From contig OZ241858.1 in the NCBI GenBank assembly GCA_965203035.1, positions 1,600,882-1,664,881 of the forward strand: DNA of 64,000 bases, given 5' to 3'. The notes under the pieces were generated by a model. It saw nothing but the letters and a program-made list of their open reading frames with translations. It ran no database searches and had not been told where the DNA came from. Positions 1,001-21,600 of this stretch are shown here, one piece after another. The translations under genes were made by a program, and so were the position numbers. The DNA is from Candidatus Spongiisocius sp. Lineage in GTDB: Bacteria; Actinomycetota; Acidimicrobiia; Spongiisociales; Spongiisociaceae. Every line of letters begins with the position of its first letter. Position 1 is the stretch's first letter.

Positions 1001-1789
1001 CTAGGAAGTCGGGAGGGGGCTGAGTAGGCGGGTGTCGATTAGGGCTTGGAAGTGGTTGGCGACGCTGGTGGCCAGAACTCGGTGGCGGATCAGGACGCCT
1101 AGCTCGATGTTTCGGTCGAGGGCGGCGGCGGTGAGGTTGGCGGAGGTGATGAAGACGGCCTCGTCGTCCACCACCACGGCTTTGGCGTGGAGTACGCCGG
1201 TGGGGCCTTCCGGGTCTAGGGAGCGGGGGTCGTAGTAGACGGCGGGCTTGGACGTGCCGGGCCAGTCCTTTCCCCAGAACTGGTCGGTGAAGCGACGGAC
1301 GAGTTGGTCTTCGGAGGTCTTGTCGCCACGGGCGCGCTGGATGTTCAGCAGGATCGTGACTCTCAGACCGGGGATGCCGTCGAGGCGTTGGGCCAGGTGG
1401 GCGAAGGCTTGGGGGCCGTCGAAGTAGGCGTAGGTGCTCACCCACACGGACCGCTCGGCGTTGTCGAACAACTCCTCGTAGACGCGGCGGGTGTCGCGGG
1501 CGTGCAGGCCCGGCACCTCGGGGCCTGACCACACCAGGTCGGGCGACGGAGCCTTGGCGGATGCTTGCTCCACGGAGCGAATCCACGCTGCAACCGCTCG
1601 CCCCGAGATTCCGAGACGTGCGAGTTGGTTGATCTCGCTGATTATCTCCTCAGCACCATCTCCGATTCCAACCTCGGATTCGAGAGACAACCGGCTTGGG
1701 CGATCAGGGAGAAGGCCATAGTCGAAGGCGTCGGCGAGCTTCCGCAATAGATTCGAGGGAAGCGCCTGGATGTGGTGGCCCGCGAACAT
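1001..1789 (-). CDS. drmC: DISARM DrmC, phospholipase-D-like (HKD) nuclease
   Basis: Single HxK(x4)D..S.N motif 'HAKAVVVDDEAVFITSANLT'. Start ATG at 1789 overlaps the drmB stop by 1 nt. The N-terminal extension in the 327-aa track ORF is Arg/Pro-rich GC artefact. Last gene of a drmD-drmMI-drmA-drmB-drmC arrangement. Confidence 0.8.
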   Translation of the reverse strand: MFAGHHIQALPSNLLRKLADAFDYGLLPDRPSRLSLESEVGIGDGAEEIISEINQLARLGISGRAVAAWIRSVEQASAKAPSPDLVWSGPEVPGLHARDTRRVYEELFDNAERSVWVSTYAYFDGPQAFAHLAQRLDGIPGLRVTILLNIQRARGDKTSEDQLVRRFTDQFWGKDWPGTSKPAVYYDPRSLDPEGPTGVLHAKAVVVDDEAVFITSANLTAAALDRNIELGVLIRHRVLATSVANHFQALIDTRLLSPLPTS

Positions 1790-3612
1790 CAGCTCATAGG
1801 GAAGAAGGCGGCGTCTTCGTGGCCGAGTACCGGCACTACGAGCGCCCTGTCGAGGTAGTCGTTGCGCATCTCGCAGGAGGTCTCGGCGATCAGGGTGCAT
1901 CCGTGACAGGCGGCGCCGTGCAGCCCACGCTCCTCGAAGTCCTGATGGGCGGTGTGCTGGGCGCAGATCGGGTCGTTGGAGCACAGCTTGCCCATCTCCA
2001 GAGCGTGGGCGAGGTGTTGCTCGAAGTGGCGGGCCTGCTGGACGAGGCCGCCCAGCGTTCCCTCGGCATCCGGACTCCCCGTGTAGAGGAGGATGCCGTA
2101 GTTGCCGGACTCTACGTACACCCGCTCACGGATGGAACTGGCCGGGTATCCGCAGCGCATCGCCATCGACTGGATGAGCAGGTGAGCCAGGGTATGCAAC
2201 AGGATGTACGGGCCGCCGGGGAACCCATCCGGCCCCTTACCTCGGCTTTGCCGCCAGGCCTTGTGGCCGTCCAGCAACTCGTTGATGCGGTCCTTGACAG
2301 GCGGGCGCTTCAACCAGGCATCGACCGCTGAGGGGTGCAGATGGGCGAACACGCCCTCTCCCCGGTTCTCGACGGCGGGGAACCATTCGGGTTCGATGGC
2401 GAGGTCGGCTCGTTCCACGTCGGTTTCGTACTCGCCGTGGATGTCCCGGACCGCCGCCTCGAAGCGGGTGAAGCCGATCAGGGCTAGAACCTCGCGCAGC
2501 CGGTGGAGCTGGAACACCGACTCGACTCCGCTGCTGATCCCGGAGTCCGGGTGCCTCCAAACATTGTCCGGCAGCCGCCGGGCGTGGAAGTCAGGATCAA
2601 CCGGCACGTCATCGCCGAACCCCTCGGGCGCGCTGAGTATGGCCTCGATCTCGGCTTCCTTGATGGACCGGTCGGATCCGGTCCCGCTGCGACGCTGTTC
2701 GATCGCCCGCATCACCTCGGCGTCGGCGAAGGGGCTCAGCGCCTCGGCAATCTTCGGTTTCCCCTTGATGAAGCTGAGGTGGAGAGGTTCAAGCACGATC
2801 TGAAGGTCGTCCCAGAGGTCGTTGACCACCCGCTCGACGGCAGTGCCCCGGTCTGGCAGGGAGAGGATGCCGACTACCTGGGGAAAGTAGGCGTTGGAGG
2901 CCGTACGGATGAGGAGCCGGCTCGGGTGGTTGCAATCCTCGGCGGTGTTCAGGCCGAGCCAGGGCCGTGTGCCTCGACAACCACCGAGCGGCCGGGTACT
3001 GATATCCGTGGCCTCGTAGAGGCGTCGCGACTTGCGACACTCGCACCGGACGACCAAGTCGGCCAGGTCCCCGGTGGTTCCTTTCTCGTCGAGCCAGAGT
3101 TGACGCCCGCAGCGTTTGCCTCGGCCGTGCACGAATCCAATCCAATCGAGGTCGTCGACGTGTCCCCTCGGGCAGGCCCGTACGAATCGGGTGGGAACCA
3201 CGGATCGACCCTCGTAGCGCCCCTTATCGTCGAGGGTCCTCCGATGCACGAGCCGGCGGGAGCGGGTCCGCCCCTTCCGAGCGGAGGGCTCGGCCCCACC
3301 AGCGCCGGACAGGTTGGCTTCCTGCACTACGAACCACTCGGGGAACCGCCACGCGCCGATGCCCTGTCCCGACGCCCAGGGTTCGGACGGTTCGGGCGGG
3401 GGAGCGTACATCTTCGGCGCCGGCACACCCGTGATGAGCCGGAGAAAACCGGTGAGCCGCGCGTCCACGACCTCGGTAAGGCCGGCCGGGCTCGGCCAGG
3501 TATCGAGGCCGCCGACGATGGCGGCATGATCGGGTAGGTCGATCAGCGCACCCGGCCCGTAGGTGGTGATCACCTGGCTCTGGCGGATCTGCCCGTGGGC
3601 CTTGGGACTCAT
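1789..3612 (-). CDS. drmB: DISARM DrmB (DUF1998-type, C-terminal Cys cluster)
   Basis: ~607 aa from internal Met 'MSPKAHGQIRQSQVITTYGPGALIDLP'. C-terminal 'CAQHTAHQ...CHGCTLIAETSCE' zinc-ribbon-like cluster typical of DUF1998. Lies between helicase drmA and PLD drmC. The track ORF N-terminus (3612-3837) overlaps drmA and is an artefact. Confidence 0.75.
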   Translation of the reverse strand: MSPKAHGQIRQSQVITTYGPGALIDLPDHAAIVGGLDTWPSPAGLTEVVDARLTGFLRLITGVPAPKMYAPPPEPSEPWASGQGIGAWRFPEWFVVQEANLSGAGGAEPSARKGRTRSRRLVHRRTLDDKGRYEGRSVVPTRFVRACPRGHVDDLDWIGFVHGRGKRCGRQLWLDEKGTTGDLADLVVRCECRKSRRLYEATDISTRPLGGCRGTRPWLGLNTAEDCNHPSRLLIRTASNAYFPQVVGILSLPDRGTAVERVVNDLWDDLQIVLEPLHLSFIKGKPKIAEALSPFADAEVMRAIEQRRSGTGSDRSIKEAEIEAILSAPEGFGDDVPVDPDFHARRLPDNVWRHPDSGISSGVESVFQLHRLREVLALIGFTRFEAAVRDIHGEYETDVERADLAIEPEWFPAVENRGEGVFAHLHPSAVDAWLKRPPVKDRINELLDGHKAWRQSRGKGPDGFPGGPYILLHTLAHLLIQSMAMRCGYPASSIRERVYVESGNYGILLYTGSPDAEGTLGGLVQQARHFEQHLAHALEMGKLCSNDPICAQHTAHQDFEERGLHGAACHGCTLIAETSCEMRNDYLDRALVVPVLGHEDAAFFPMS

Positions 3613-3614
3613 CG

Positions 3615-6600
3615 TCAGGAGTCCGACAGGGATGCGGTGAGCGGCTTGATGTGCAGGTTCACGTCCGGCTCCACGTCCCGCAGCGAGCGGTTGGCGCGGA
3701 ACTTGCGCTGGTGGGGCGAGTCGAACTCCTCCTCGAGTATCTCCCGGAGCAGGCGTCCGGGGCCCCTGCCCGACTCGTACTTCTGGTACTTCACGGCGCT
3801 GTTGACGATCTGGTAGTGCTCCACCACCGCCAGCCACGAGTCGAGCAGATCGACCACCCGGGCAGCCACGCTCTGGCGCCGATCCTCTCGCTCCGCCTCG
3901 TCATCCAACGGTTGGCTATCCACTCGTTCCTGGAAGAGTTCCCGCAGCCGTTGCTCGACCGCGGCCCGCACGGTCGTGAGCGAAGTGACACCGCCGGGCG
4001 GCGTCAGGACCGGTTGGGCGTGGCGGGCGTATCCGACCAGCGCGCCGGCCATGCCCCGGTCGAGGGCGCGCGCCGAGAACGGCGTGACGCTCGACGCCTC
4101 GACGGGCCGGTAGAAGGTCTCGTGGTAGTGGCGGAACCGTTCGTAGTGGGACCGGTCGCGAGGCTTGTGGACGTTGAGCAGCGTGACCACCAGTCCCGGC
4201 TTGCGGTCGTCGCGGCCTACGCGGCTGGTGGCCTGGATGTACTCGGCGTGGGTCTTGGGCTGGCCGAGCACCACCATCAGCCCGAGGCGGGGAATGTCGA
4301 GGCCCACCGAGATCATGTTGGTGGCGATGGCGCTGTCCACCCGATCCCTCTCGTGCGCGCCGCGCCCGAGGCGGCGCCGTGCCTCGGCCACCTTGGCGGT
4401 GGGAACCCGAGACGTCAGCTCCACGACCTCCGAGAAGGTCCGGCGATCCCGGAACAGGCCCTCCTGGTAGTTCTGGCCGATGCGCCTCCGTCCCCCGGAG
4501 GCCTTGACGGTGTTGCGGACCTCCTCCTCGAGGATGCGCCTCGCCCCACCCAGTTCGCGAAGGCTGTTGAAGTAGCCGAGCACGGTCATGTACGGATCGG
4601 CCGGGTTGTCCTCGTTGCGGTGCCCGCCGGAGTCCCGGTAGGCGCGCTCGGCCGCTCCCATGAGGGCCAACCAGACGCGACGCATCAAGGTCTTCGGGTT
4701 CCGGCCCGGTGACGCGATGCCGAGATAGAGCCGGCCGGGTACCTGATCGTTCGGAACGATCTCGGCGAAGAACGAGTCGCGCCGGTCCGGTCCAGGAGGC
4801 GGGAAGATCCGGGTGTTGGATCGGGCGAACAGGGCTTGGATCTGGTCCTGAGCCTGGCGCACCGTGGCGGTGGAAGCCACGATCTTGGGCAGCACGTCAG
4901 GGGTGGAGGCGTCTCCCTGATGATCGGTACCGGCGGCCCGCACGCACAGCGCCTCGATCACAGTCTCGTACAGCCCGGCCATGGTGCCGAGGGGCCCGGA
5001 TATCAGGTGCAGCTCGTCCTGGATCACCAGGTCGGGCCCGGGGAGCGGCCGCCCGAGGGGCTGGCCCTGCTTCGGGTCGGCGGCGCCGTAGAACCCGGCT
5101 TCGTCATAGCGATCCGCCCCGCCGAGCAATGCCCCGGTCTGGGCCGTCCACGGAAGCGAGGCGAACTTGTCCACGGTGGCGATCAGGAAGGCGGGAAGGC
5201 GGCGGTAGATGGGCTCGTCCACGCCCAGGATCGGCAGAGGGCGGTCCCCGCTGAAGTCGCACTCGAAGTCGGCGCAGACGATACGAAGCTCGGTCGGTGT
5301 GTCATCGTCGGGCCTTAGATCGAACGACGCCGGCTGGAAACGGGTGTCGCACCACGGGCAACTCTCCAAGGGGATGGGCAACGGCTTCCCCGTCGGGTCG
5401 GCCTTGAACCGGATGGTCTTGGACCGGGCCGAGTCCGACCGCCCATCGCCCTTGCGGCCCATGATGTTCGGGGTAGCCGCCTTGCCGACCCACAGGCCGA
5501 TCTCGAACGGCCAGACTCCGTAGCGCTCAGGGTCAGCCTCGCGTTCGAGTTCGAGCGCGCAGACGAGACCGGCCGCGCGGGCTAACTGGTCGAGCGTGAG
5601 CAGACGCAGCGTGTAGCGCATGATCACAGCGACCCCGGCGCCGTGCCTGCCGTCCTGGCCGGGGTTGCGGAGGCGCCTCAACACTATGGAGAAGGCGGCA
5701 AGACCCAGGTATGCCTCGGTCTTCCCGCCGCCGGTCGGGAAGAAGAGCAGGTCGACGATCTTGCGATGGGAGTGGTGCGGGTCGCCGAGGCCGGGAAGGT
5801 TCAGCAGGATGAAGGCCAGCTGGAACGCCCGCCATCGCGGGGCCGGCTCGTCAGGCCCGAGCCGCTGGCGCAGGGCTCGGGCCACAGCACGGTTGGCCAT
5901 CCTGAAGGCGTCGAGGGCATCAGGATCGTTAGCGAGAAACTCGATGCCGCTCTCGATGCGGGCGGCGGCGATGCCGGCGTGACGCAGCAGCTCCTCTGCG
6001 GTCTCCCGACGGTCGCCGTTGTGCGCTCCGAGACCGTCGCGCTGCGCATCGATCCAGGATCGATAGTGGTCCACGAGTGGGTTCAGCGCTGCGGAGGCAT
6101 CCTCGCCGTCGGCCAGAGCGCCGAGGGCCTCCATCGACAACTCAACCTCCGGGATCTTCACGGGCTCGGTCTTGGCGACGGTCGCGCTGGGGATCCAGGC
6201 CGTGCGCAGCAGGCGGCAGTCCCCATGGACCATCTCCCACTCGGCGGACACGCCGTGACCGACGGCGTACTCGGGCGTGTCGGCGTAGTGGAGGTCGGCA
6301 ACCCGGTCGTCCCACTCCGCAGCCGCCATCCCGCGGGGGTCGGGCCGGGGAACGAAGGACTCGTTGCATGTGACTTCGAGTTCCGCCTGGAATGCGTAGG
6401 CTCGGTCGGCAACTCCGGCACCAGCCGGCTTGCTCGGGACGGGCGGCCGATTGTTCACGAGAAACACCGACACCGACCGGGTTCCACGGGGGAGAGCGGC
6501 TAGACGGCGGCCGTGGATCGGCCTGGAGACGACATGCAGCCGCAGACCGCCGGACGCCGGAACCCGGTGATCGGGAGGGTCCGAGAGGTCCACCCGCACG

Positions 6601-7100
6601 GTTCGCTCCTGCGCCCTCCTCCGCCAGACGGATAGCGGTTTGCCTTCCGCATCCTCCCCCTCGCCAGGCGTGTAGTCGCCCCAGCGAACCGTCACTTCGA
6701 GTGCGCCGGTGTCCTCGGACACGAGGAAGCTCAGACCAATCGAGGACGGGAAGAAGCCCTTCTTCGCCGCCCGCCGTTCGTCGGCGGACTCCTCGACCAG
6801 CCCGGCGGTGTCCGGGACCTCGTCGAGGGAGTCGTCCTCGTCAACGTCGCTCCGGTCCTCGAACGGCGTGTCCGACGGGATCAGGAACCCGGTCAGGTAC
6901 CAGTTCGACGGTCTCCTCCAACCGGGCAGTAGTTCATCGGCGAGGTCGTGACCGGCGCCTGGTCCCACAAGGTCGAGCTTCAGCGCCTCGACCAGGTACT
7001 CGCGCACCTGCGCTGAGTCGGCGAACGCGAGTGACGACGGTGGGGAGTCAGCGATCATGCGGATGTACTGTAGGCAGAGCGCCTGACACGGAACAGCCAA
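3615..7100 (-). CDS. drmA: DISARM DrmA, DExH-box helicase (1161 aa)
   Basis: Walker A 'FFPTGGGKTEAYLG', DExH 'VIQDELHLISGPLGT', C-terminal helicase motifs. TTG start at 7100, with an in-frame stop 2 codons upstream. Confidence 0.8.
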   Translation of the reverse strand: MAVPCQALCLQYIRMIADSPPSSLAFADSAQVREYLVEALKLDLVGPGAGHDLADELLPGWRRPSNWYLTGFLIPSDTPFEDRSDVDEDDSLDEVPDTAGLVEESADERRAAKKGFFPSSIGLSFLVSEDTGALEVTVRWGDYTPGEGEDAEGKPLSVWRRRAQERTVRVDLSDPPDHRVPASGGLRLHVVSRPIHGRRLAALPRGTRSVSVFLVNNRPPVPSKPAGAGVADRAYAFQAELEVTCNESFVPRPDPRGMAAAEWDDRVADLHYADTPEYAVGHGVSAEWEMVHGDCRLLRTAWIPSATVAKTEPVKIPEVELSMEALGALADGEDASAALNPLVDHYRSWIDAQRDGLGAHNGDRRETAEELLRHAGIAAARIESGIEFLANDPDALDAFRMANRAVARALRQRLGPDEPAPRWRAFQLAFILLNLPGLGDPHHSHRKIVDLLFFPTGGGKTEAYLGLAAFSIVLRRLRNPGQDGRHGAGVAVIMRYTLRLLTLDQLARAAGLVCALELEREADPERYGVWPFEIGLWVGKAATPNIMGRKGDGRSDSARSKTIRFKADPTGKPLPIPLESCPWCDTRFQPASFDLRPDDDTPTELRIVCADFECDFSGDRPLPILGVDEPIYRRLPAFLIATVDKFASLPWTAQTGALLGGADRYDEAGFYGAADPKQGQPLGRPLPGPDLVIQDELHLISGPLGTMAGLYETVIEALCVRAAGTDHQGDASTPDVLPKIVASTATVRQAQDQIQALFARSNTRIFPPPGPDRRDSFFAEIVPNDQVPGRLYLGIASPGRNPKTLMRRVWLALMGAAERAYRDSGGHRNEDNPADPYMTVLGYFNSLRELGGARRILEEEVRNTVKASGGRRRIGQNYQEGLFRDRRTFSEVVELTSRVPTAKVAEARRRLGRGAHERDRVDSAIATNMISVGLDIPRLGLMVVLGQPKTHAEYIQATSRVGRDDRKPGLVVTLLNVHKPRDRSHYERFRHYHETFYRPVEASSVTPFSARALDRGMAGALVGYARHAQPVLTPPGGVTSLTTVRAAVEQRLRELFQERVDSQPLDDEAEREDRRQSVAARVVDLLDSWLAVVEHYQIVNSAVKYQKYESGRGPGRLLREILEEEFDSPHQRKFRANRSLRDVEPDVNLHIKPLTASLSDS

Positions 7101-7112
7101 CCCTCAGGCAAG

Positions 7113-7143
7113 GCACCCTCGTGTCCGCGCTCACGGCGAGGGT
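7113..7143. promoter_or_regulatory. perfect 8-bp-stem hairpin (caccctcg N15 cgagggtg) immediately upstream of the drmA start; possible operator or 5' structure
   Basis: Seen directly in the sequence. Lies in a ~200-bp divergent intergenic region between drmA (-) and the plus-strand small-protein operon. Confidence 0.25.
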
Positions 7144-7306
7144 GTTAACGAGATGCCGGGATGTCAACCTCTAAGGTTTTTTGGCGTTCTACTATGTCGA
7201 GCCACGATTGGCACAGGTAGAGAGTAGTGTACGATAGAGCAGGGGCACGCTGGCCAGCGGCCCGGCACCGTGATCCATGCGGATGGCACGTTCGAGGAGG
7301 TAGAGG

Positions 7307-7507
7307 ATGACCACGACATATCACATGACGCGTGAGGAGCTGTGGCAGGAGATGGAAGCTCGTCTTGAGGAGGAGCGGATGACCGTCGAGGAGTTCCGCG
7401 CCGAGGGCGAGGCGGACACGCTCACCGATGCCGAACTACGCGAGCTCTGGTTGATGTACAGGCCACTCCTGTTCGACGATGAAGAATCCCACTGGGAGGA
7501 TCGCTAG
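7307..7507 (+). CDS. small acidic protein P1 (66 aa), paralog of P2
   Basis: Shares 'EGEADTLTDA' and the flanking pattern with the next ORF. Strongly acidic. Its stop overlaps the GTG start of P2. Confidence 0.5.
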   Translation: MTTTYHMTREELWQEMEARLEEERMTVEEFRAEGEADTLTDAELRELWLMYRPLLFDDEESHWEDR

Positions 7508-7695
7508 TGGCCGAAGTAAGGATCGTCACGAACGAACAGATGATCGAGGAGGTCAAGAGCATCCTTGAGGCTGAGCACATGACCTTCGAGCGTTTCGTCT
7601 CCGAGGGGGAGGCAGATACGCTTACCGATGCTTTCCACAGGGATCTATGGCTCGACTATCGCGAGTGGATCCGAGACTGGATCAACGACACATGA
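7507..7695 (+). CDS. small acidic protein P2 (62 aa), paralog of P1
   Basis: GTG start overlapping the P1 stop. 'FERFVSEGEADTLTDAFHRDLWLDYR' aligns with P1. Its stop overlaps the ATG of the next gene (ATGA). Confidence 0.5.
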   Translation: MAEVRIVTNEQMIEEVKSILEAEHMTFERFVSEGEADTLTDAFHRDLWLDYREWIRDWINDT

Positions 7696-8387
7696 CACAG
7701 TCGTTACTCCGTCCGGCCTCCGAATCCTTCGCCGATCGACTCAACAGAGTGGTCGCGGCAGCGCTAGAGACCGATCTGCGGTTCGTGGCCAGCGTGGCGA
7801 GCAACGGTAGGCGTGCGAACGTTCGAGCCTCCGCAGTTCCGAACCGCAGATCCGACGGGTTCCCTCTGGTTCGCCTTAGCGACATACCTGGAGCACCGGC
7901 GATGTTTCTTCTGCCGAGGTTCTTCGTCGAGATCAGTCCTGAGACCGCCCGCCTTCGGGTCGCGACCTCCACCATTGGGTTGTGGGTGGACATCACCGGC
8001 GGCCGCAAGCCACCACGTCCGTTGATACGGGTCGAATACGATCGTCGACTCGATACGGGCCATGGGGCGGCCGCGCATGTTCATGTTCACGCTCACTCGC
8101 CTGAACTGGCCTGGCTTTACGGCTCCAGCGGTCTGGCTGCCCCCAATCTTCATGCTCTGCACTTCCCGGTTGGTGGTAGGAGGTTCCGACCGACACTCGA
8201 GGACTTCCTGCTCTTCCTGGACAGGGAGAACATTTTCACCCATTTCAAGGAAGGATGGAAGACCACCGTGCTGCGATCACTTCGAGAATGGGAGGAAATC
8301 CAGGCGAGGTCGACGGTACGGCAGTATCCCCGATTGGCAGCCGATGCCCTGCGAGATATGGGTTATAGAGACCTGAGGTGTGGTTAG
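7692..8387 (+). CDS. hypothetical protein P3 (~231 aa, His-rich segment 'HVHVHAHSPE')
   Basis: Internal Met of track ORF 7647..8387, coupled to P2 by an ATGA overlap. No recognised domain. Third gene of the plus-strand operon embedded in the DISARM locus. Confidence 0.45.
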   Translation: MTQSLLRPASESFADRLNRVVAAALETDLRFVASVASNGRRANVRASAVPNRRSDGFPLVRLSDIPGAPAMFLLPRFFVEISPETARLRVATSTIGLWVDITGGRKPPRPLIRVEYDRRLDTGHGAAAHVHVHAHSPELAWLYGSSGLAAPNLHALHFPVGGRRFRPTLEDFLLFLDRENIFTHFKEGWKTTVLRSLREWEEIQARSTVRQYPRLAADALRDMGYRDLRCG

Positions 8388-8830
8388 CAGTCGGACTGAT
8401 TCGACCATCGTTCCGTCGTGTTGTACGCAGAGAACAAGGCGGGAAAGAAGCCCTTCTTCGCCGTCCGCAGTTCCTCGGCCAATTCCTCCGCTAACCCGGC
8501 TTTCTCCGGCACCTCGTCGAGGGATTCGTCCTCGTCCAGGTCGCTGCGGTCCTCGAACGGCGTGTCCGACGGGATCAGAAACCCGGTCAGGTACCAGTTC
8601 GACGGTCTCCTCCATCCGGGCAGTAGTTCATCGGCGAGGTCGTGACCGGCGCCGGGTCCCACCAGGTCGAGCTTCAGCGCCTCGACCTGGTGGGAGCGCA
8701 CATCCGACGAATCGGCGAACGTCAGCGACGACGGCGGGGAGTCAGCGATCATGCGGACGTACTGTAGGCAGGGCGCCTGACACGGAACGGCCAACCCTCA
8801 GGGAGGCATGCACGGGCCACCGCTGCGGCA
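8384..8830 (-). pseudogene. degraded 5' copy of drmA (first ~115 codons plus ~10 nt upstream), roughly 85% identical to authentic drmA by eye
   Basis: Track ORF 8384..8794 translates to 'MAVPCQAPCLQYVRMIADSPPSS...GFFP', matching the drmA N-terminus, then diverges to a stop. Nucleotides 8700-8830 align with 7020-7120. Confidence 0.7.
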
Positions 8831-8892
8831 CGGGAGTGATGGCCGACTATCTAGAGGAATACCGAGGCCGCCGCCTGGGAAACCCAACATCA

Positions 8893-9336
8893 TCAGCGAC
8901 CGGCAGCTCTGGCTGCCTTTTCGATCCAAGTGCCAAGGTTATCGTAACCCTTATGCCATTTCCAAAGATAGAAGGGGTAACCGCGTGGAATCCTGCCGCA
9001 ACGCGAGCTAGTTTTCCCGGCGAGATCTTTGATCTTACTTATATCGACCCCCAGAAGGCCATTGCCACGTTCTTTGCTCGCCTTGATCTCGTACTTGACC
9101 CATTTGCTCCTGCACGTGTGCGACCCCACAAGAACTACTGTGACCGAAGTTCCCTTCAGTTGTTCATCAATCCAGTTCTTGATCGCCTCGTCTCCGCGCT
9201 GTTTGATCTCTTCGAATTCGGCCTTGTCAATGAATCCGGACGCTTCCTTGCCCTGAGTAACCCAACTATTGCGGACAACCATCGCTCGCGAGACATCGTG
9301 GTCGTACTCGAAACTGAAGAATACCCGGCGAGCCAT
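8893..9336 (-). CDS. TIR-like domain protein (DUF1863 / ThsB-like), 147 aa
   Basis: 'RVFFSFEYDHDVSRAMVVRNSW...SVTVVLVGSHTCRSKWVKYEI' matches the DUF1863 TIR-like pattern (FISY..D......W......S..V.vL.S......S.WV..Ei). Local GC ~50% versus ~68% in flanking DNA. Confidence 0.6.
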   Translation of the reverse strand: MARRVFFSFEYDHDVSRAMVVRNSWVTQGKEASGFIDKAEFEEIKQRGDEAIKNWIDEQLKGTSVTVVLVGSHTCRSKWVKYEIKASKERGNGLLGVDISKIKDLAGKTSSRCGRIPRGYPFYLWKWHKGYDNLGTWIEKAARAAGR

Positions 9337-9355
9337 CTATCTTTCTCCTGTACGA

Positions 9356-9751
9356 TTAGCTGACTAGAACAGCAACTAGAACACCTATTGCTACAGCCAT
9401 ATAGAAGCTGACAAGTGTCACAGAGAACATCGAGGAGCGCCATGCCAGTTTCGTGCCCTTGAATCGGTTTGTTCTCATCGAGAAGTCGATCTCCTCAGGC
9501 TGCAGGAGACGCACGTGATCGTACAGAGCACGGTACAGTCGTTCTTGGCGAAGGAAATAGGCGTCTAAACCCCAGAACACCAGCGTAGGGAGAAGGCCAA
9601 CCAGCGCCCAGTCGCTTTCGCCCTGCCGCGAAACCAGCACGAGTAGGGCGGAAACCAGCACGACGCTCCACCCCTTCAACATGAAGGAGTTGAAGGCCAT
9701 GCGGTTGATGACACCCTGGATCAGTTCCAAGTGCTTCAGCTTGGATTCCAT
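9356..9751 (-). CDS. small integral membrane protein (~131 aa, 3 predicted TM helices); possible SLATT-like effector
   Basis: Start chosen at 'MESKLKHL' with GGGAGGG 6 nt upstream. Hydrophobic segments 'WSVVLVSALLVLV', 'WALVGLLPTLVFWGL', 'FSVTLVSFYMAVAIGVLVAVLVS'. Sits 19 nt upstream of the TIR-like gene on the same strand, in the same low-GC block. Confidence 0.55.
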   Translation of the reverse strand: MESKLKHLELIQGVINRMAFNSFMLKGWSVVLVSALLVLVSRQGESDWALVGLLPTLVFWGLDAYFLRQERLYRALYDHVRLLQPEEIDFSMRTNRFKGTKLAWRSSMFSVTLVSFYMAVAIGVLVAVLVS

Positions 9752-9844
9752 CCACACCCTCCCGGCGGCGAACCTCATGCGCCTGACGTGACTGCGACTC
9801 CGGCGCGTGAGCCCAAGTCTAGTGACTGCTTTGCCAGAGGTTAC

Positions 9845-10180
9845 GGGGCGAAGGGATCGCTGTGGACGGAGCGGGACGAGTCTCCGGCGCTGGGAACGCC
9901 GTGCCGGATTTGGCGGTCTTGGTGGGCTTGGCGAGGCCGGCGCGGGCTGCTTCGGCGGTGCGTTGGGCGTTGAGTTCCAGGAAGCGAGCCAGCACCTGGT
10001 CGCGGACGGCGTCGGGCCATCGGTAGCGGTAGGACTTCTTCGTCCTGCCCGAGGTCTCCCCATCGGTCTCGTAGTCGAGCAGGTGCTCGCAGTCCGTTGG
10101 GATGTCGGTCCAACCGTGGGCGTCAAGTACTGCTCAATCCATGGCGGTGCGCAGACGACGGAGTTCGTCGATCTCGGGGA
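9845..10180 (-). pseudogene. degraded 3' copy of drmMI (last ~100 codons) with an in-frame TGA
   Basis: Minus-strand translation '...AVLDAHGWTDIPTDCEHLLDYETDGETSGRTKKSYRYRWPDAVRDQVLARFLELNAQRTAEAARAGLAKP' matches the drmMI C-terminus. Nucleotides 9930-10180 align with 13870-14110. Confidence 0.65.
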
Positions 10181-10562
10181 TCGTTCGAGTGTTCTCAGCG
10201 ACTGCACGCAGGGCCCACCCTGACGCCGCGTGGCTCGTGCGTTGTGACGCCCGCGAGCGGATGTTTGATGTGGTGCTCCCGATTCTGGTCGACATCGCTG
10301 GCAGCCGAGACGTCGATGTGACCCCGGCCCCGTTCTGGCGACCCACCCAGACGTCGCTGTACGGCGACCGGGTCACCTAACCCGGAGAGATGGACCTGCT
10401 CGTGCGTCCCAGAACGACGACAGCCCGAACCCACGGCCCCGCGGCCCTCGGCCTGTAGGCCAAGACGCGGCCACTTCCCCACGTAAGGAGACCAGAATTG
10501 CTACTCCGTCCACCCCCTGCAAACCCCTCGATCCGTGAAGAGTCAGCGCTAGTCTTCGACGA

Positions 10563-12058
10563 GTGACCGAAGGAACACTGTCTGAGATCGCTGCTTGGCT
10601 GGACGAGGAGGCCGACTGCCAAGAGTTCTTCAGCCGTATTAGTGTTTCCCTCAACCGGCGCTTCGAAGTAGACGATCCGCTGGCTCCTCTCCCGTGGGCC
10701 TTCGACTACAGGCTTCTTGCGAGGTCCGACGAACGGTATGAAGGTCATGGTCCCTTCGGCCCGCTGTTGGAGACCACTGATGGACAACATCCGCCCCCAC
10801 TTGACCAGATTCCTGAAGAGGCAGTTTCTCTGTGGGAGAAGCTGAGCGGACTTGTCACGCATCCGTATTTGAAGGCGCGCCTGAACGACCTGATGTGGGA
10901 GCGACGCTGGTCTGACAGCCCCCACTTGTACGCTGGTACAGCTATCGATGCATATCTGGCACTGGGTCCTCCGGTAGCCGACGGGATGGAGTATGTGAAC
11001 GCTCTCTCTCGCGCGGCTGGGCTGGCACGGCAGATCAATGATGGTCAGCGGCGCCAGCTCGTCGTTGAAGCCGCTCTGCGCCGCGCCCAGGCAGAACTTG
11101 CCGGTGCCGAAGCGAAGCCAGGGATCGCCCTCCGTCTATTGGACGTAGTCCTCGATGATGACGGTGAGGGAGTCAGGGATAGAGTGGCCAGCTTGTTGGA
11201 GCAGGCTAACAAAGTATTCGATGATCCGTGGATTAGGAATAAAGTCATTGACCGGCAGATAGCTTTCTCATCTGGTGAGCGAGAACGGCGAAAGGAGCTG
11301 GAACTCCAAAAGGTCAATACTTGGATCCGGCGCGCCTCGACCGAAACCGGAATGAGGCGGCGGATTTTCTTGATGAGCGCACTGGAGCACGCCCGCACTT
11401 ACGGCTTCCGTGGCCAAGCGGAGCAGATCCGGCGGGAGATACAAGAGATCGAATTCAGTGAGGACAGCATGCAGAGCATCTCTGCCACAGTTGAGGTGCC
11501 AAGTGACGAAATCGAGAATACGATCTCTCAGATCAGCTCCGCTGGTACGTGGGCTGGCTGCTTGGATCGCCTGCTGTTCTTCGGGCCTCTGAGTGGCAGT
11601 CTGAAAGAGAATATCGAGCATGTCCGCCAGCAAGCAGAACAGTTCGTGGTCCAGCACCTGGTCCCCTCTGAAGTCTTAGGTCCTTGGAATGAGACTGTTT
11701 TCGTTGCTCATACTGAAGAACAGAAACAAGAATACAATCTGTCTAATTTTGAATCAATAGGTATCCAGATGAATAGCTATATCGTGGCTGCGGCTCTTGA
11801 GGCTATACAGGTCACCCACGGAATTCCCGCGAAGGACGAATTAGAGGACTTCTTCTCGACACCTTTCATTGACGAAGGCACCGCCGAACGGATAGCGGCG
11901 AGTGTCCTGCACTATGTCGTAGGCCAGTTTGATGAGTGTATCATGGTTCTTATTCCTCGGATCGAGAGGACAATACGGCAACTCATCCGCGAGATTGGTG
12001 CGCCAACCTGGTTGGAACCTAGATCAGGCGGATTCGGGAAACAGCGTTCGCTATACCG
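10563..12058 (+). pseudogene. N-terminal ~498 codons of a ~577-aa gene interrupted by ISL3 insertion (GTG start)
   Basis: Track ORF 10563..12122. Its last ~20 codons read into the IS inverted repeat. The ORF resumes after the 8-bp target duplication at ~13499. Confidence 0.6.
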
Positions 12059-13490
12059 GCTCTCCGCGTTTCAGTGGGGAGTGAGGGTGGTCAATAGGTC
12101 CCAGTTGGGTTTGCCGGCGTAGAGGAGGGCGCGGATTCGGTAGTTCGCGAAGTTGCGGAACCCGAAGGCTGTGCGTTTGACGCGTTTGATGAGGTTGTTG
12201 AGGGCTTCGGTGGGTCCGTTGGTCACGCGGGAGATGTGCCAGTTGGTGATCTGGGGGGTCCAGCGGGCGATGGTTCGTCCTAGTCGGTTGATCTCTGGTG
12301 GACAGGATTCGTCTTGGAGGTCGTCAGCCAACTGGAGGGTGTAGGAGAGCGCGGTGGCGATGCTGTCTATCTGGTAGATGCCTCGGACGGTTTCTTTGGC
12401 GTGCCAGGCGGTGCGGACTTCGCCGTGGGGGTCACCGGCGTCCAAGAGGCCACGGAGCCGTGTTTGGCCACCGTCGCTGATGCGTTCGGATGCGGCGGTG
12501 AGGAGCCGCCGTATCCGATACAGCGGATCGCCTTTTCGGCCTCTGTGCCCGAGGGTTTCGTTCTGGACCCGGCGCCGGACTTCGTCGAGCCGCTGGTTAG
12601 CCAACCGGATGACATGGAACGGGTCTGCGACTTGTGAAGCGTGGGGCAGCACCCGGTCATATGCGGTCCGATAGGGGCCGGAGAGGTCCAACACCGCCCA
12701 CAGGATCTGATCCCGCCATTCCTGGGACTGTTCCCGAAACCAGGATGCGGCGCTTTCTGCTGTCCTGCCAGGGACTATGTCCAACAGCTGGCGACCTCCC
12801 ACATCGACCACAGAGGTCGCCCACTGGGGGATACGCCACCTTCCCTGACGCCAGAACAACGTCTCATCGACCCCCACAGCTTCCACAGCCCCGAAACGGG
12901 AAGTGTCGGCTTCCAGCAGCGCTTCACCCCACCTTGCCACCTCTCCGTTGACCGTATGCCACCCACAACCCAACTCCGCAGCGACCTCTTGGACCGAACG
13001 GCCCAACCGCCCCACCTGGACGGTCGCCCACCTGGCCGCCCGAGACGTCAACAATCCACGCACAGGCGCAATCCCCGCATCCTGTTCGATAAACGAGCTG
13101 ACCGCACACTCAGAACTCGGGCACATCCAGCGCCGCTTCCGCCACCGCAGACGAACCGGCCGACCGAACGCCGGCAGATCCACCAACACCACCGTCCGCT
13201 CGCCCTTGGACCACACCCCTCCGCCACAGCCCCCACACATCGGACGGGACAGGCGAGACCCGATCACAACCTCCAACGGCGCCCCATCGCCCCCGTCGTC
13301 GATCCCGACCAACTCCACGTCGCCCAGACCCACCAACAACTCACACATGCGCGTAGGATCAGCTTCCACAGGGGTCCTCCTGCCTCGGATGTCATTGCTG
13401 AACTCCGATTATGGAGGACCCCTCCTCACTTCTAGTGGATTCCGAACCCCCGCACAGATCCCCCCACTCCCCACCCATTCGCGAAGAGCC
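12058..13490 (-). mobile_element. ISL3-family insertion sequence (~1.43 kb) with 8-bp target-site duplication GCTATACC
   Basis: Terminal inverted repeats GGCTCTCCGCGTTTCAGTGGGGAGTGAGGG (left) and GGCTCTTCGCGAATGGGTGGGGAGTGGGGG (right, reverse complement). GCTATACC repeated directly at ~12050-12058 and ~13491-13498. Confidence 0.85.
12071..13369 (-). CDS. ISL3-family DDE transposase (432 aa, GTG start)
   Basis: Characteristic C-terminus '...TNGPTEALNNLIKRVKRTAFGFRNFANYRIRALLYAG' plus the 'GVDE' region. Confidence 0.9.
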   Translation of the reverse strand: MEADPTRMCELLVGLGDVELVGIDDGGDGAPLEVVIGSRLSRPMCGGCGGGVWSKGERTVVLVDLPAFGRPVRLRWRKRRWMCPSSECAVSSFIEQDAGIAPVRGLLTSRAARWATVQVGRLGRSVQEVAAELGCGWHTVNGEVARWGEALLEADTSRFGAVEAVGVDETLFWRQGRWRIPQWATSVVDVGGRQLLDIVPGRTAESAASWFREQSQEWRDQILWAVLDLSGPYRTAYDRVLPHASQVADPFHVIRLANQRLDEVRRRVQNETLGHRGRKGDPLYRIRRLLTAASERISDGGQTRLRGLLDAGDPHGEVRTAWHAKETVRGIYQIDSIATALSYTLQLADDLQDESCPPEINRLGRTIARWTPQITNWHISRVTNGPTEALNNLIKRVKRTAFGFRNFANYRIRALLYAGKPNWDLLTTLTPH

Positions 13491-13498
13491 GCTATACC

Positions 13499-13734
13499 AA
13501 CTCCTTGTCCATCTGGACGGCCACATGGACAAGGACTGGCTCAGGTACCTCAAAACTTTGCTTGTCAACCCGCTCGGCCCAAACCTGCGCAACGTGCATA
13601 TGCACGGTTTGGCACAACAGGGAACACGTGAACAGGCTGCAGTGCTAATCCATGCGGTCGTGTTTCTCGCGTCGTTGCGAGTGAGTATCCAACCGGGGGA
13701 CGGTGCTGACGTTGAGGGAGATAGCATCCACTAG
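13499..13734 (+). pseudogene. C-terminal ~78 codons of the IS-split gene, carrying an Rx4H HEPN-like motif 'NLRNVHMHG'
   Basis: Reading continues '...RSLY|QLLVHLDGHMDKDW...' directly after the right target duplication. Part of track ORF 13411..13734. Confidence 0.5.
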
Positions 13735-13769
13735 CCTGATTGATTGGTCGGTGTCCGCGGTGAGCCAGA

Positions 13770-16700: not shown

Positions 16701-17834
16701 GGCGCCGTCGTGGACCATGCGCCAGAGGGCCAGGAGTTGGGCGTAGGCGCCGTAGCGCTGGTCCATGGTGTCCGGGTGCTGGGAAGCGTCGGCTCGCAGC
16801 CGCTCGTAGAGACCGGACACCGAGTAGGCGCCCAGGAAGGTCTCGTCCTGGGGCAGCAGGTCCCGCTCCTCGGCGTACAGCAGGTAGACGAGGCGCAGTA
16901 CCACCGTCAGCAGTCCCCGGTAGATCTCGTCGGGATCCTCCGCAAGCCAGCGCCCGAGCAGCCGACCTTCAGACGCGTCATGAGCGGCCTGGAAGCCTCG
17001 CAGCAGTTCGTAGAGTGCGTGGAGCACCTGTTCGGCCAGGCGCTCGCTCACCTCGTTCTGGAACTTGCGGCTGTCCTCCAGTAGCGCCGCCAGGCGCTTC
17101 TCCCGCGGCACGCTTAGCAGGCGCGTCTCTCCGAGAAGCTCGCGCATGGCTGAGCAGATCGGTCGGCCTGCCGTCTGGACCATGTCGCTCACCTGGAAGT
17201 CCAGCCATCCCGAACTCTCACCCCGGGGCGCGGAGACGAGGCGCAACGTTCCGCCATTGAATAGGAGCCCCGCTGGAACGCCCGTGTTTCGCAACAGCCG
17301 CTCCATCCGGCCATGAGGTGACAGGTCCAGACCGCCGCCGGAGACAGCGCGGTCCAGGTCCTCGCCGGGTTCGCACACGCTGACCAGCAGTTGCCATGGA
17401 GAGGGTTCGTCCTCTTGCTCGTCACCCTTAGGAACGGCGGGCCGCACCGGAGCCCGGAGCGGTTCGGAGCGAACTGCGAAGTCGGGCCGGAACGCCTGGC
17501 CGGATTCCGGCAGCGGAAGCTCCAGGTCCGTGGGGATCGGCGCCTCAGCGGTGCCGGCATAGCCCTTCGGGGAGAACCTCCAACCGAGCACTTTCGCGGC
17601 GAACTGCCGGAAGTCCGGAAGTTCGGTCGTGGTGCCGGCCGGATCGGGAGCGCCGTTCTCAACCCACTCGCGGAGTAGCTTCTGGCCTGGGATATCCCGG
17701 AGGTTCAGGATCACGCCCGCCTTCACGAGCGCAGGCGCCGACACCACCAGGCCGGTAGGTCGGACGAACCCGATCCACTCCAGATGGTCGATTACCCGCT
17801 GGTCACGCTTCGCCATCAGTTGGTCTCCGGCCAC
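13770..17834 (-). CDS. drmMI: DISARM DrmMI, N6-adenine DNA methyltransferase (Eco57I-like), ~1350 aa
   Basis: Motif IV 'TIVGNPPFGGHN' and AdoMet-binding region. Large size typical of DrmMI. The start region overlaps the drmD stop (alternative start 17816). Confidence 0.85.
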   Translation of the reverse strand: MAGDQLMAKRDQRVIDHLEWIGFVRPTGLVVSAPALVKAGVILNLRDIPGQKLLREWVENGAPDPAGTTTELPDFRQFAAKVLGWRFSPKGYAGTAEAPIPTDLELPLPESGQAFRPDFAVRSEPLRAPVRPAVPKGDEQEDEPSPWQLLVSVCEPGEDLDRAVSGGGLDLSPHGRMERLLRNTGVPAGLLFNGGTLRLVSAPRGESSGWLDFQVSDMVQTAGRPICSAMRELLGETRLLSVPREKRLAALLEDSRKFQNEVSERLAEQVLHALYELLRGFQAAHDASEGRLLGRWLAEDPDEIYRGLLTVVLRLVYLLYAEERDLLPQDETFLGAYSVSGLYERLRADASQHPDTMDQRYGAYAQLLALWRMVHDGANAGQMSMAPKYGDLFRPDRYPFLEGRDFGPRQTLERIEPPRIGDGTIHRVLEKLIVLDAERISYRALDVEHIGSVYETMMGFRLETASGRSVAIKATKKHGAPATVNLEALLGQEPSKRVKWIRDRTDRTLTTKVGKAVRESGSLDEMHAALDSVLDRNATPDLVAAGAMVLQPSEERRKSGSHYTPRELTEPIVRKALEPILDRLATEAGGPVRPDQILDLKVCDPAMGSAAFLVEACRQLADQLIESWRAHDAMPEIPPDEDEQIFARRLVAQRCLYGVDRNPKAVDLAKLSLWLITLAKDHPLTFLDHALRHGDSLVGLSIPQTRTFHWKGKAPIFQAGFEALRGQEHLDRANDLRRRIREADDTVSDWERRAWWREARDETDEVQMLGDLVLAAFFDESKPKAREERRKKFASAVLNGSAGQYKGWLTELRYGDPPLAPFHWQIAFPEVFDRPNPGFDTIVGNPPFGGHNTVVNANVRGYTQWLRLTHPESTGKCDVVAHFYRRSYDLIRRNGTLGLIATNTIAQGDTRASGLRWICKKGGQIYNARRRVSWPGLAAVVVSIVHISKGQYGGHRYIDGQVVDKITAFLSNRGGHDDPLPLRTNIGSSFVGSYILGIGGFSFDDAGRGGLATPIETMRDLLRENPHYGNVIFPYIGGKELNTSATQSHHRFVINFGEMALEECRYLYPHLLSIIEESVRPERMESARISKSGHGKRASIWWQFVHHAKELYSRVDKLARVLANSQVSNHVQFAFLPSNMVYGHTLNVYPVENYAAFSALQARPHEAWALFFGSSMKDDLRYTPSDCFETFPFPENWRSRYDFEAVGSEYYEFRAALMVRYGEGMTKIYNRFHDPYENDAEITELRRLHTAMDRAVLNAYGWTDIPTDCEFLLDYEIDEETWGRKKKPYRYRWPDPIRDEVLARLLELNAQRAAEEARAGLRKPMSGENAPQRRRSDGAFTGTTTSRTLWETDL

Positions 17835-20800: not shown

Positions 20801-21061
20801 GGTGGCCGTGGTGCAGTTCCAGCGCAGCGTGTTCAGGAACGCCGCGAACTGGTGCGGCGGATCGAGACCCTTGGCGGCCAGGCCGTCCCATCCCGCATCC
20901 TCGATGATCATGCGGTCCGGTTCGTACTCCCAGAACACATCGAGCGACTGGCCCTGGTTGTCGTCGTCCACACACGCCAGCCGCACCAGCGGCGACTCTC
21001 CGGGGTTGTCCGACCTGGCGACCTCTTCCACAATCCAGCGCCGAGATCGAACCTGGACCAA
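17816..21061 (-). CDS. drmD: DISARM DrmD, SNF2-family helicase (1081 aa)
   Basis: 'LIADDTGLGKTIEAG' (Walker A), 'LLILDEAHHAAP' (DEAH), C-terminal helicase 'VLIFTENRQGTKRYL'. Confidence 0.85.
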   Translation of the reverse strand: MVQVRSRRWIVEEVARSDNPGESPLVRLACVDDDNQGQSLDVFWEYEPDRMIIEDAGWDGLAAKGLDPPHQFAAFLNTLRWNCTTATDPTLFQAPFRAGITIDAYQMEPLRKALLLPRVNLLIADDTGLGKTIEAGLITRELLLRRKVKVIVVAAPPSMLEQWKGEMEDRFGLVFEVLDRRYVSKMRRERGFGVNPWRTHSRFLISHRLLIDPSYTDPMREWLGDHRTGSLLILDEAHHAAPSSGGRYGIETKFTRAVRDLAHRFEHRLFLSATPHNGHSNSFSTLLELLDPYRFTRGVKVTRPKTDLAPVMVRRLKEDIRELQGGFPKRNVERIEIAGLPDDAPELQLSRLLDEYRTAREQRFLSESSRVRHAAGLMVVGLQQRLLSSIEAFARTLVVHRRTVFRQWKEAQQETDARPEIDPDQTHLFVQSPDADDERAEWTRQDEDADETDQVREITAAARPSEHPDTTAWEREQALLLRMQEIADETKHLPDAKTRWLIEWIRRNQCPALPEFGAPLTGPPPAWTDRRVLIFTENRQGTKRYLKSTLEQAIFGTDRADERIGVIDGRTRPARRREIQRRFNADPADEPLRILIATDAAREGLNLQARCRDMFHFDLPWNPGRIEQRNGRIDRKLQPAAEVTCHYFVLPQRVEDRVLEVLVRKTETIKKELGGLPKVIEDAVEQRLIRDGIRHSDADALRRRIEAESPEGESTLAAAEEIEAARERREDLKDQVERCRALLAKSRDWVRFSAEPFRQAINCSLRLLGASELAESAGDNGHRVWTFPALEQRAATDPSWTSTLDSLRVPRRIDQKVPDWRRDAPLRPVVFEDTGRLDDQTVHLHLEQRVAQRLLARFRAQGFIYHDLSRACLAQTKDSIPRVILLGRLSLYGRGAERLHEQIVPVAARWSEPERRSGPLRAYARDARERTMRLLDESLDSPAREPDQVIRRRLLAGAAQDIADLRPQLEPRAAEFAAIAEQRLAERGEREEQSLRETLERHRAQVVAQLERYERDQKQLTFGFNAQETRQLNADIRHWRRRLAQFDEDLAGEPARVRDFYDVHVKRVEPVGLVYLWPETN

Positions 21062-21450: not shown

Positions 21451-21460
21451 GGGGGGGGCG
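21451..21460. repeat. G10 homopolymer tract
   Basis: 'aaggggggggggcgc' seen directly. ~390 bp upstream of the drmD start, abutting repeat copy 1. Confidence 0.9.
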
Positions 21461-21461
21461 C

Positions 21462-21600
21462 AGGCCCGGCTGCTCCCCGTCCGGAGAGGAGCCGGGCCTA
21501 CTTCCTTGGTCTACTGTCCTCGGCGTCCTCATTATCACCTGTCGGGCCCGGATTTCAACCGCGAACCGGCGACTGATCGGCACCCGAGTCGGAATACGGA
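21462..21600 (+). repeat. structured interspersed repeat, copy 1 (candidate sRNA or MITE-like element)
   Basis: Aligns with 31050-31190 (GCGCAGG(C/T)CCGGC..GCTC..CCGTCCGGAGAGGAGCCGG(G/A)CCTACTTCC..GTCTA.TGTC.TCGGC..TC.TTATCACC..GGGCC.GG.TT.CAACC). Stem GG(C/U)CCGGC pairs with GCCGG(G/A)CC with compensatory changes. Confidence 0.35.

Follow-up and report, generated by a model that had tools for sequence, protein, structure and literature searches.

In Candidatus Spongiisocius sp., the interval between the drmMI and drmA genes of a restriction-modification-associated defence island system (DISARM) is, in our somewhat guarded judgement, probably a hotspot for cassettes. The two degraded core-gene ends that lie in it, a 5' end of drmA and a 3' end of drmMI, would be the displacement scars of two later recombinations that imported cargo together with core-gene ends. 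The locus was studied in a stretch of 64,000 nt (contig OZ241858.1, positions 1,600,882-1,664,881 of the forward strand), which we call the window and whose own positions are used throughout. The drmMI-drmA interval measures 6.7 kb in the window and holds three cargo modules, two core-gene fragments and one insertion sequence (IS).

Duplicated ends of drmA and drmMI

Gene identities were assigned by PADLOC and Pfam profile searches of the window proteins (Table 1). The canonical order of class 1 DISARM is drmD-drmMI-drmA-drmB-drmC. By gene content and order the window locus is class 1 DISARM, with predicted anti-phage activity and a predicted methylation-dependent distinction of own from foreign DNA: all five core genes are present and intact on the minus strand in the order D-MI-A-B-C. 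The drmA start at 7058 agrees with the 1147-aa product annotated for the source genome, and the Pfam domains of drmMI are Eco57I, MmeI_Mtase and MmeI_TRD. Taken in the order in which DISARM is transcribed, the interval runs from drmMI through a convergent PDC-S39 gene, a 376-nt spacer, the drmMI fragment, a gene for a transmembrane (TM) protein, a gene for a TIR protein, the drmA stub and an opposite-strand orf66-orf62-orf246 cassette to drmA.

The duplications were defined by blastn of positions 8000-10600 against the whole window and then of the whole window against itself. Positions 8442-8802 matched the 5' end of drmA (6748-7108) with 88.9% identity over 361 nt (E = 1e-134), and positions 9923-10186 matched the 3' end of drmMI (13862-14124) with 84.5% identity over 264 nt (E = 3e-79). 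Both duplicates are direct repeats of the intact gene ends, and window self-blastn showed no further drmA or drmMI copy in the 64 kb beyond the intact gene and the fragment. A first-pass annotation, made from the letters of the DNA alone, had reported a copy of the drmA start within 8384-8830 and a copy of the drmMI 3' end with an in-frame TGA, both in the orientation of the intact genes and bounded at about 8440 and 10180. The self-blastn matches, strong for both segments, agree with this description; they place the breakpoints at 8442 and 10186, and the full drmMI fragment, at 9819-10186, is slightly longer than had been claimed.

The ATG of the drmA stub at 8752 corresponds to that of the intact gene at 7058, and an open frame of 122 aa runs from 8752 to 8384. 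One in-frame TGA, at 10136-10134, occurs in the drmMI fragment in place of a CGA of the intact gene; with lower identity, the fragment continues as far as a terminal stop of its own (9821-9819). We compared nonsynonymous (dN) and synonymous (dS) divergence between each fragment and its intact gene. The stub showed dN 0.083 and dS 0.306 (dN/dS 0.27) and the drmMI fragment dN 0.105 and dS 0.400 (dN/dS 0.26), while intact-versus-intact drmA comparisons gave dN/dS of 0.15-0.18. With a dS of 0.31 and 0.40 and a dN/dS of 0.26-0.27, both fragments read as diverged alleles, not as decayed local copies. Against every outgroup, dN of the drmMI fragment was about 0.06 above that of the intact copy with similar dS, which points to a diverged drmMI allele that later decayed. 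The dN excess of the drmA stub was only about 0.01.

The drmA stub is a mosaic, with four successive segments 94.5, 83.3, 97.8 and 83.0% identical to the intact copy. The last segment is nearer to the intact drmA of a related metagenomic locus, L077 (89.6%), than to its own neighbour. Nine sites unite the stub with L077 against the intact window copy and another relative, L087, while six unite the stub with its neighbour. The allele of stub codons ~72-95 is present as a functional gene in L077 and in the metagenomic locus L078. Stub-specific changes were 9 nonsynonymous to 7 synonymous, as against 12 to 23 in intact lineages, a ratio that suggests a modest relaxation of selection. From these patterns we infer that the stub is the displaced 5' end of another drmA allele, partly homogenised with the intact copy by gene conversion. 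The mostly synonymous divergence, and a stub allele that is functional in L077 and L078, support the earlier proposal of a footprint of recombination between diverged DISARM alleles.

The two drmMI ends also differ in their tails. The intact gene ends in a tail of 33 aa, RKPMSGENAPQRRRSDGAFTGTTTSRTLWETDL, which shares 20 of its 33 residues with the tail of equal length in the relatives L082 and L083. The fragment has a 37-aa tail that is unlike the intact one and near in length to the 36-aa tails linked to TM-TIR pairs. Its stop codon lies 67 nt from the TM start, as against 30-35 nt in L005, L006, L007, L077 and L078. The fragment is probably the displaced original 3' end of drmMI, still joined to the TM-TIR pair.

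The same measurements bear on a purely local origin, by which a tandem duplication that included the drmA and drmMI ends diverged in place and no second allele took part. Tandem amplification of the orf66-orf246 module alone is indeed seen (four units in L090; a 1.5-kb unit with a stub in L084), and stubs tend to resemble their own locus group. However, a dead copy would be expected to drift neutrally, whereas the divergence is mostly synonymous (dN/dS 0.26-0.27, dS 0.3-0.4). Moreover, nine stub sites match a functional allele found elsewhere, the two drmMI tails differ in length and sequence class and are each tied to their own downstream neighbour, and the sequences flanking the repeats are unrelated. 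We regard a local origin as very improbable.

Related loci and the proposed order of events

The related loci (L numbers) are all contigs of metagenome-assembled genomes (MAGs) or metagenomes, at 70-95% identity. In the canonical loci L079-L081 drmMI abuts drmA, with a junction of about 120 nt as against the 6.7 kb of the window. In TM-TIR-type loci (L005, L006, L007, L077 and L078) the TM-TIR pair follows 30-35 nt after the drmMI stop; this is the drmMI-TM-TIR-drmA arrangement that the first-pass annotation had predicted to exist elsewhere. In S39-type loci (L082-L084) a PDC-S39 gene is convergent with drmMI and TM-TIR is lacking, with a spacing of 33-36 nt in L082 and L084; in the window the PDC-S39 stop lies 36 nt past the end of intact drmMI. 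The nearest homologues of the window PDC-S39 (72% and 67%) occupy this same position, convergent with drmMI, inside L082-L084. Both kinds of locus thus exist, and the window combines features of the two.

A sliding comparison of 300 nt along the whole locus, in which crossover positions are approximate, was used to find the closest relative of each part. drmD was closest to L005, L006 and L087 (85-95% nucleotide identity), the 5' part of drmMI to L006 (91/85/86%), the drmMI fragment to L006 (87%) and the TM-TIR pair to L077. The body of drmA with drmB and drmC was closest to L077/L078, at 83-96% versus 71-86% for the S39-type loci; drmA past its 5' end was 90-96% identical to L077/L078 and drmB 83-90% to L077. 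For PDC-S39, all relatives lay in S39-type loci (70-79%). Over the initial 300 nt of intact drmA (positions 6701-7000) identity was 93% to L087 versus 86% to L077, and the first ~350 nt of intact drmA together with the orf66-orf62-orf246 cassette match a third, L087-like lineage. As drmD, the 5' part and the fragment of drmMI, the TM-TIR pair and drmA-B-C all belong to the TM-TIR type, the flanking cassettes are the likelier arrivals. The resident backbone was thus probably TM-TIR-type and the TM-TIR pair its oldest occupant. In support of this, the junction of a drmMI 3' end with TM-TIR is native in five other loci, and the junction of drmMI with PDC-S39 is native to another class. The first-pass annotation had taken the TIR/TM segment as the acquired piece; the comparison puts the resident genes in the TM-TIR-type clade, and that polarity is probably to be reversed.

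The order of events could then have been as follows. The resident locus would belong to the clade with TM and TIR directly after drmMI. On the left, DNA from an S39-type locus, with drmMI convergent with PDC-S39, would have crossed over homologously inside drmMI and joined illegitimately at its far end, at about codon 1237 of the resident drmMI. This would leave an intact drmMI with an S39-type tail, PDC-S39, the 376 nt of filler and a dead old 3' end joined to TM-TIR. On the right, L087-like DNA with orf66-orf62-orf246 divergent from drmA would have crossed over inside drmA near 6400-6700, with its far end joining at about codon 120 of the resident drmA, so that the old promoter-proximal 5' end was left as a stub downstream of TIR. 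The stub would later have been partly homogenised with the new drmA copy by gene conversion, and the last step would be the entry of an ISL3 element into PDC-S39. The process may have been homology-facilitated illegitimate recombination, or an ordinary double crossover in which an existing stub served as the second homology arm. With such an arm, cassettes could move by double crossover or loop out between the direct repeats.

Several points weigh against this history. Two events are less parsimonious than a single insertion of a 1.75-kb segment, and the relatives include no strain-level before-and-after pair. The 3' 300 nt of drmMI are equally close to L006 and L084 (88%), so the left crossover cannot be placed. 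No relative was found in which TIR is immediately followed by drmA. The 37-aa tail of the fragment bears only a loose likeness to the 36-aa tails linked to TM-TIR. Taken as a whole, the stub comes nearest to its own neighbour (88.5%) and to L087 sequences (82-87%); its likeness to L077 is confined to its last third, and the account therefore needs gene conversion. The origin of the 376-nt filler is left unaccounted for, as are 75 nt at 8367-8441.

The opposite polarity, that of the first-pass annotation, would have a 1.75-kb TM-TIR-type piece inserted into a resident S39/cassette-type locus like L082, its right end perhaps anchored on a pre-existing drmA stub and its left end joined illegitimately upstream of PDC-S39 with deletion of an orf66 leader. 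A single event would suffice. L082 and L091 do have the order drmMI, cargo, orf66, stub, cassette and drmA without TM-TIR, and the window stub adjoins an orf246 cassette as it does there. The window PDC-S39 lacks the orf66 leader seen in L082, of which only about 12 nt are kept, and the crossover itself could have produced the mosaic stub as a hybrid. Against it, drmA-B-C are 83-96% identical to L077/L078 and only 71-86% to S39-type loci, and drmD and the drmMI 5' part are closest to L005/L006; short of additional replacements, the backbone is therefore not S39-type. The window stub also differs from those of L082 and L084 in its breakpoint and junction sequence. We hold this polarity to be rather unlikely. 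Identity of the window stub/orf246 junction with the L082/L084 junction was itself considered and rejected, as breakpoints and junction sequences differ.

Displaced drmA ends recur among the relatives. Stubs of the drmA 5' end abut the 3' end of orf66-led cassettes in six other loci, with up to three per locus. L077 and L078 have one stub each with a common breakpoint at ~codon 84, decayed to 44-50% amino acid identity. The stub of L082/L083 reaches ~codon 112. L084 has two stubs to ~codon 86 in a 1.5-kb tandem unit of 79.5% identity, the first of them frameshifted, and L087 has three of ~109, 66 and 70 codons, the second frameshifted; L091 has one. Together with the window, the breakpoints lie at ~codons 66, 70, 84, 86, 109, 112 and 120, and at least three of the stub junctions are independent. 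The variation of cassette boundaries within drmA (codons 66-120) points to general rather than site-specific recombination. This recurrence concerns drmA only; the one other drmMI 3' fragment is a truncated gene in L077. A protein search with the stub (104 aa) brought up none but short proteins (95-181 aa) and missed the 1147-aa DrmA of the window itself. The number of its matches was rejected as a census of stubs, as two of the three contexts inspected (L088 and L089) were frameshift-split drmA genes in low-coverage assemblies.

Two of the loci with stubs are decayed DISARM loci. L077 (1-4460) is without drmD and has only the last 223 codons of drmMI, and it keeps TM-TIR, stub, cassette and drmA-B-C. 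L087 (400-8700) has half of drmD, three stubs with cassettes and 192 codons of drmA.

The drmA stub might be a maintained short gene and more than a scar, with a role as regulator or decoy for the 122-aa N-terminal part of DrmA that it would encode; this could be reconciled with any of the origins. The open frame, the start codon and 50 nt upstream are intact, the dN excess is only about 0.01, the stub lies 91 nt downstream of the TIR gene on the same strand, and short ORFs are called at the stubs of L082, L087 and L091. On the other side, stub lengths vary from 66 to 120 codons, and some stubs are frameshifted (stub 1 of L084, stub 2 of L087), which indicates that they are not generally maintained genes; those of L077/L078 are down to 44-50% amino acid identity. 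The near-identical middle third of the window stub is better explained by gene conversion, and the stub-specific changes (9:7, versus 12:23 in intact lineages) also speak against maintenance. We consider a maintained gene improbable.

Cargo at the junction varies as well. L082 and L091 share an architecture at 85-87% identity, with differing cargo (PDC-S39 or orf246-type) behind the same orf66 leader. Other cargo lies between TIR and drmA elsewhere: in L078 (4366-7274) a Piwi protein, short Argonaute-like, and its DUF4365 partner, matched by the end of L005; in L077 (5370-6299) a Hypoth_Ymh protein; and in L007 (10569-14059) an IrrE/M78-like protein with unknown ORFs. It is possible, and we put it forward only tentatively, that the drmMI-drmA junction is an integrase-free cassette platform in class 1 DISARM of Acidimicrobiia, with the stubs as homology handles. 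A cassette would then consist of an orf66 leader and its cargo (orf246 family, PDC-S39 or others), and would take along part of the 5' end of drmA with its divergent promoter. By way of the stubs, general recombination could add, delete, swap or export cassettes among DISARM loci and could reach even sites outside DISARM, as the 70-nt mini-stub of L085/L086 may indicate.

The source is possibly a MAG and an IS lies nearby, so that a chimeric assembly of the DISARM loci of two strains, or a transposon-borne TIR/TM pair, might also be proposed. The same anatomy occurs in independent NCBI, ENA and JGI assemblies (L077, L078, L082-L084, L087 and L091), which argues against an artefact. No terminal inverted or direct repeats bound 8442-10186, and the IS has its own perfect 8-bp duplication in PDC-S39. 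Either explanation is scarcely credible, and the view of the first-pass annotation that simple insertion of a mobile element does not fit stands: no repeats were found at 8442 or 10186, and the sole transposase (ISL3) is bounded by its own repeats inside PDC-S39.

Genes and cargo modules of the locus

Table 1. Features of the DISARM locus and its drmMI-drmA interval (window positions)
Feature	Position	Strand	Evidence and remarks
drmC (phospholipase D (PLD) nuclease)	1001..1984	-	PADLOC DrmC E 4.7e-78; Pfam PLDc_2
drmB (MZB / DUF1998)	1789..3837	-	PADLOC DrmB E 1e-77; Pfam MZB
drmA, intact, 1147 aa, ATG at 7058	3615..7058	-	PADLOC DrmA E 1.5e-267; Pfam Helicase_C
orf66 (7307-7507), orf62 (7507-7695), orf246 (7692-8387)	7307..8387	+	Operon divergent from drmA
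drmA 5' stub	8442..8802	-	88.9% to 6748-7108; 50 nt upstream sequence and ~103 conserved codons
ThsB-like TIR protein, 147 aa, PDC-M50B	8893..9336	-	Pfam ThsB_TIR E 2.6e-24; PADLOC ThsB E 7.5e-58, PDC-M50B E 1.8e-48
TM protein, 131 aa, PDC-M50A	9356..9751	-	PADLOC PDC-M50A E 5.6e-48
drmMI 3' fragment, pseudogene, ~codon 1237 to stop	9819..10186	-	84.5% to 13862-14124; translation
Orphan spacer, 376 nt	10187..10562	.	Between PDC-S39 and drmMI fragment
PDC-S39 / DUF7380 gene, convergent with drmMI	10563..13734	+	PADLOC PDC-S39 E 8.7e-26; Pfam DUF7380
ISL3-family IS	12058..13490	-	Pfam DDE_Tnp_ISL3 E 3.5e-56; terminal inverted repeats; 8-bp target-site duplication
drmMI (N6-adenine methyltransferase, MmeI-like target-recognition domain (TRD)), intact, 1354 aa	13770..17834	-	PADLOC DrmMI 1252.9 bits, E 0
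drmD (SNF2 helicase), intact	17816..21061	-	PADLOC DrmD E 3e-298; Pfam SNF2-rel_dom, Helicase_C, ResIII

The target-recognition region of drmMI (14200-15200) has 47-53% GC versus 65-70% over the remaining gene, and little or no nucleotide similarity to related loci whose drmMI is otherwise 80-90% identical. This pattern looks like TRD swapping and may be a further sign of frequent recombination in such loci.

The TM protein has 74-80% amino acid identity to the product of the gene directly after drmMI in L005, L006, L007, L077 and L078; the pair itself lies at 4488-5341 in L077, 3173-4035 in L078 and 9586-10444 in L007. A TIR scan of genome contigs returned 76 loci, with DISARM in only three (L005, L006 and L007) and the TM gene next to the TIR homologue in 41 of the 76. 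The TIR relatives are at most 76% identical and come from many phyla, and homologues of the pair are scattered among Proteobacteria, Firmicutes, Bacteroidota, Chloroflexota and archaea. GC content of the pair is 53% in the window (8893-9751) and 50-55% in every host locus, versus 61-67% for the host loci. By its distribution and composition the pair behaves as a widely transferred two-gene module. The window TIR protein matches the ThsB_TIR profile of Thoeris. However, the window has no ThsA (SIR2 or Macro), and the partner is a 131-aa membrane protein that matches PDC-M50A only; for this reason the pair is filed as the PADLOC candidate PDC-M50, which its adjacent A (TM) and B (TIR) genes fit, and not as Thoeris. 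Its defence role is that of a candidate.

No Pfam, NCBIfam or PADLOC match was found for orf66, orf62 or orf246. The products of orf66 and orf62 are small acidic paralogues with the common motif EGEADTLTDA..LW that head an operon with orf246, and the window cassette is 93-95% identical in nucleotides to L085 and L086. More than 200 clusters make up the orf246 family, none of them named and every one labelled Acidimicrobiia; its invariant residues include E115, H131, H133 and H157. An AlphaFold2 model of orf246 was confident, with a predicted local distance difference test (pLDDT) score of 82.7, and Foldseek gave no PDB fold match to it (best E 0.017). The orf66-led module was seen in the window, L077, L078, L082-L087, L090 and L091. 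Outside DISARM, L085/L086 keep only ~70 nt of the drmA 5' end, and the non-DISARM locus L090 has four tandem orf66-orf246 units that are 80-86% identical, without a stub. The orf66-orf246 unit may be an uncharacterised defence or toxin-antitoxin-like module. Scanned ORFs of 7100-13770 contained no recombinase domain as a sign of an integron, attC structure not being a specific target of the search.

A repeat of about 105 nt (84%) is present at 21458-21561, just upstream of drmD, and at 31051-31154, and also at 31403-31595. It is similar to L085 8743-9064 (L085/L086), near the orf66-orf62-orf246 module, and could mark island borders or be a small repeated gene. Two more diverged repeat pairs of about 900 nt, at 46350-47256 / 55080-55986 (75%) and 51147-52104 / 52198-53146 (71%), are presumably paralogous genes.

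PDC-S39 is split by the IS into 10563-12057 and 13499-13734, and an ORF of about 574 aa is restored when the IS is removed. The element disrupts the last ~55 codons, and its target-site duplication is a perfect 8 bp, GCTATACC, at 12050-12057 and 13491-13498. The ISL3 insertion is a separate, recent event, and PDC-S39 is probably inactive in the source genome. We rejected the ISL3 element as cause of the rearrangement, since its own target duplication lies inside PDC-S39 and does not bound the rearranged segment. An orf66-type leader directly precedes PDC-S39 in L082; alignment with the upstream regions of L082 and L084 showed that only its last ~12 nt are left ahead of the window gene. The spacer at 10187-10562 had no relative by blastn or tblastx against all fetched loci and matched the window itself only. 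It may be filler at an illegitimate junction. Rfam and tRNA scans of the window gave no family and no tRNA, and these together with promoter and terminator scans gave nothing that accounts for the spacers of the interval.

Likeness to known systems and meaning for DISARM

Orphan C-terminal tips are known as displaced ends in Rhs and contact-dependent inhibition (CDI) loci. End displacement through homology-facilitated illegitimate recombination has been put forward for type VI secretion system (T6SS) effector-immunity arrays in Vibrio cholerae as well as for orphan tips of Rhs loci (Kirchberger et al. 2017, PMC5361080). In the proposed T6SS model one incoming end pairs with the conserved gene and the other joins illegitimately, and arrays are later exchanged by ordinary homologous recombination (PMC5361080). 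The end of a conserved gene is the homology anchor, and the incoming module carries a copy of it; the former end stays behind with the former cargo as truncated orphans, and repeated rounds build arrays. An intact gene end and its truncated duplicate, with a cargo module between them, occur twice in the window, as stub/orf66-orf62-orf246/drmA and as drmMI/PDC-S39/drmMI fragment, in the same orientation. The window differs in that its host is an anti-phage system and not a toxin-delivery locus, and in that displacement affects drmMI at its 3' end as well as drmA at its 5' end, the two moving towards one another. Since these pieces come from non-varying enzymes, no new protein tip results; each cargo is a gene of its own, and many lie on the other strand. 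By this comparison the process appears to be the already known end displacement, and the setting, DISARM, to be new.

The interval also resembles an integron array, in that cassettes stack at a fixed point with the newest presumably beside the intact gene, and cargo is exchanged behind a constant element (orf66 in L082/L091). It differs in that neither an integrase nor, in a search not aimed at attC structure specifically, any attC-like site came to light in the window interval, and in that the boundaries are variable breakpoints in drmA.

Embedded defence genes have served the discovery of new immune systems, with their mechanism of entry left open. Payne et al. 2024 (bioRxiv 10.1101/2024.01.29.577857) reported on embedded defence genes, with DISARM, BREX, Hma and type I restriction-modification systems as their hosts; loci with pseudogenes were excluded, and 96.7% of the embedded genes were co-oriented with the host system. 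The route of entry is not addressed there: the text contains neither 'recombination' nor 'truncat' and offers only the idea of a 'genomic sink'. PDC-M50 and PDC-S39 are candidates from that approach, and the window likewise has several cargoes in one DISARM. However, the window PDC-S39 and the orf66 cassette are opposite in strand to DISARM.

The scars suggest, for one lineage, how defence genes become embedded in DISARM, namely through recombination between the host system and its diverged alleles, in which core-gene ends serve as anchors. The core gene would stay intact because the replacement end arrives with the cargo, and end replacement would explain why DISARM is not inactivated when several cargoes accumulate. 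A prediction is that pipelines which drop pseudogene-bearing loci miss the informative cases. The orf66 and orf246 family is flagged as a likely defence-associated module. If the tentative platform proposal is true, the drmMI-drmA junction would exemplify a general route for embedding defence genes in multi-gene immune systems.

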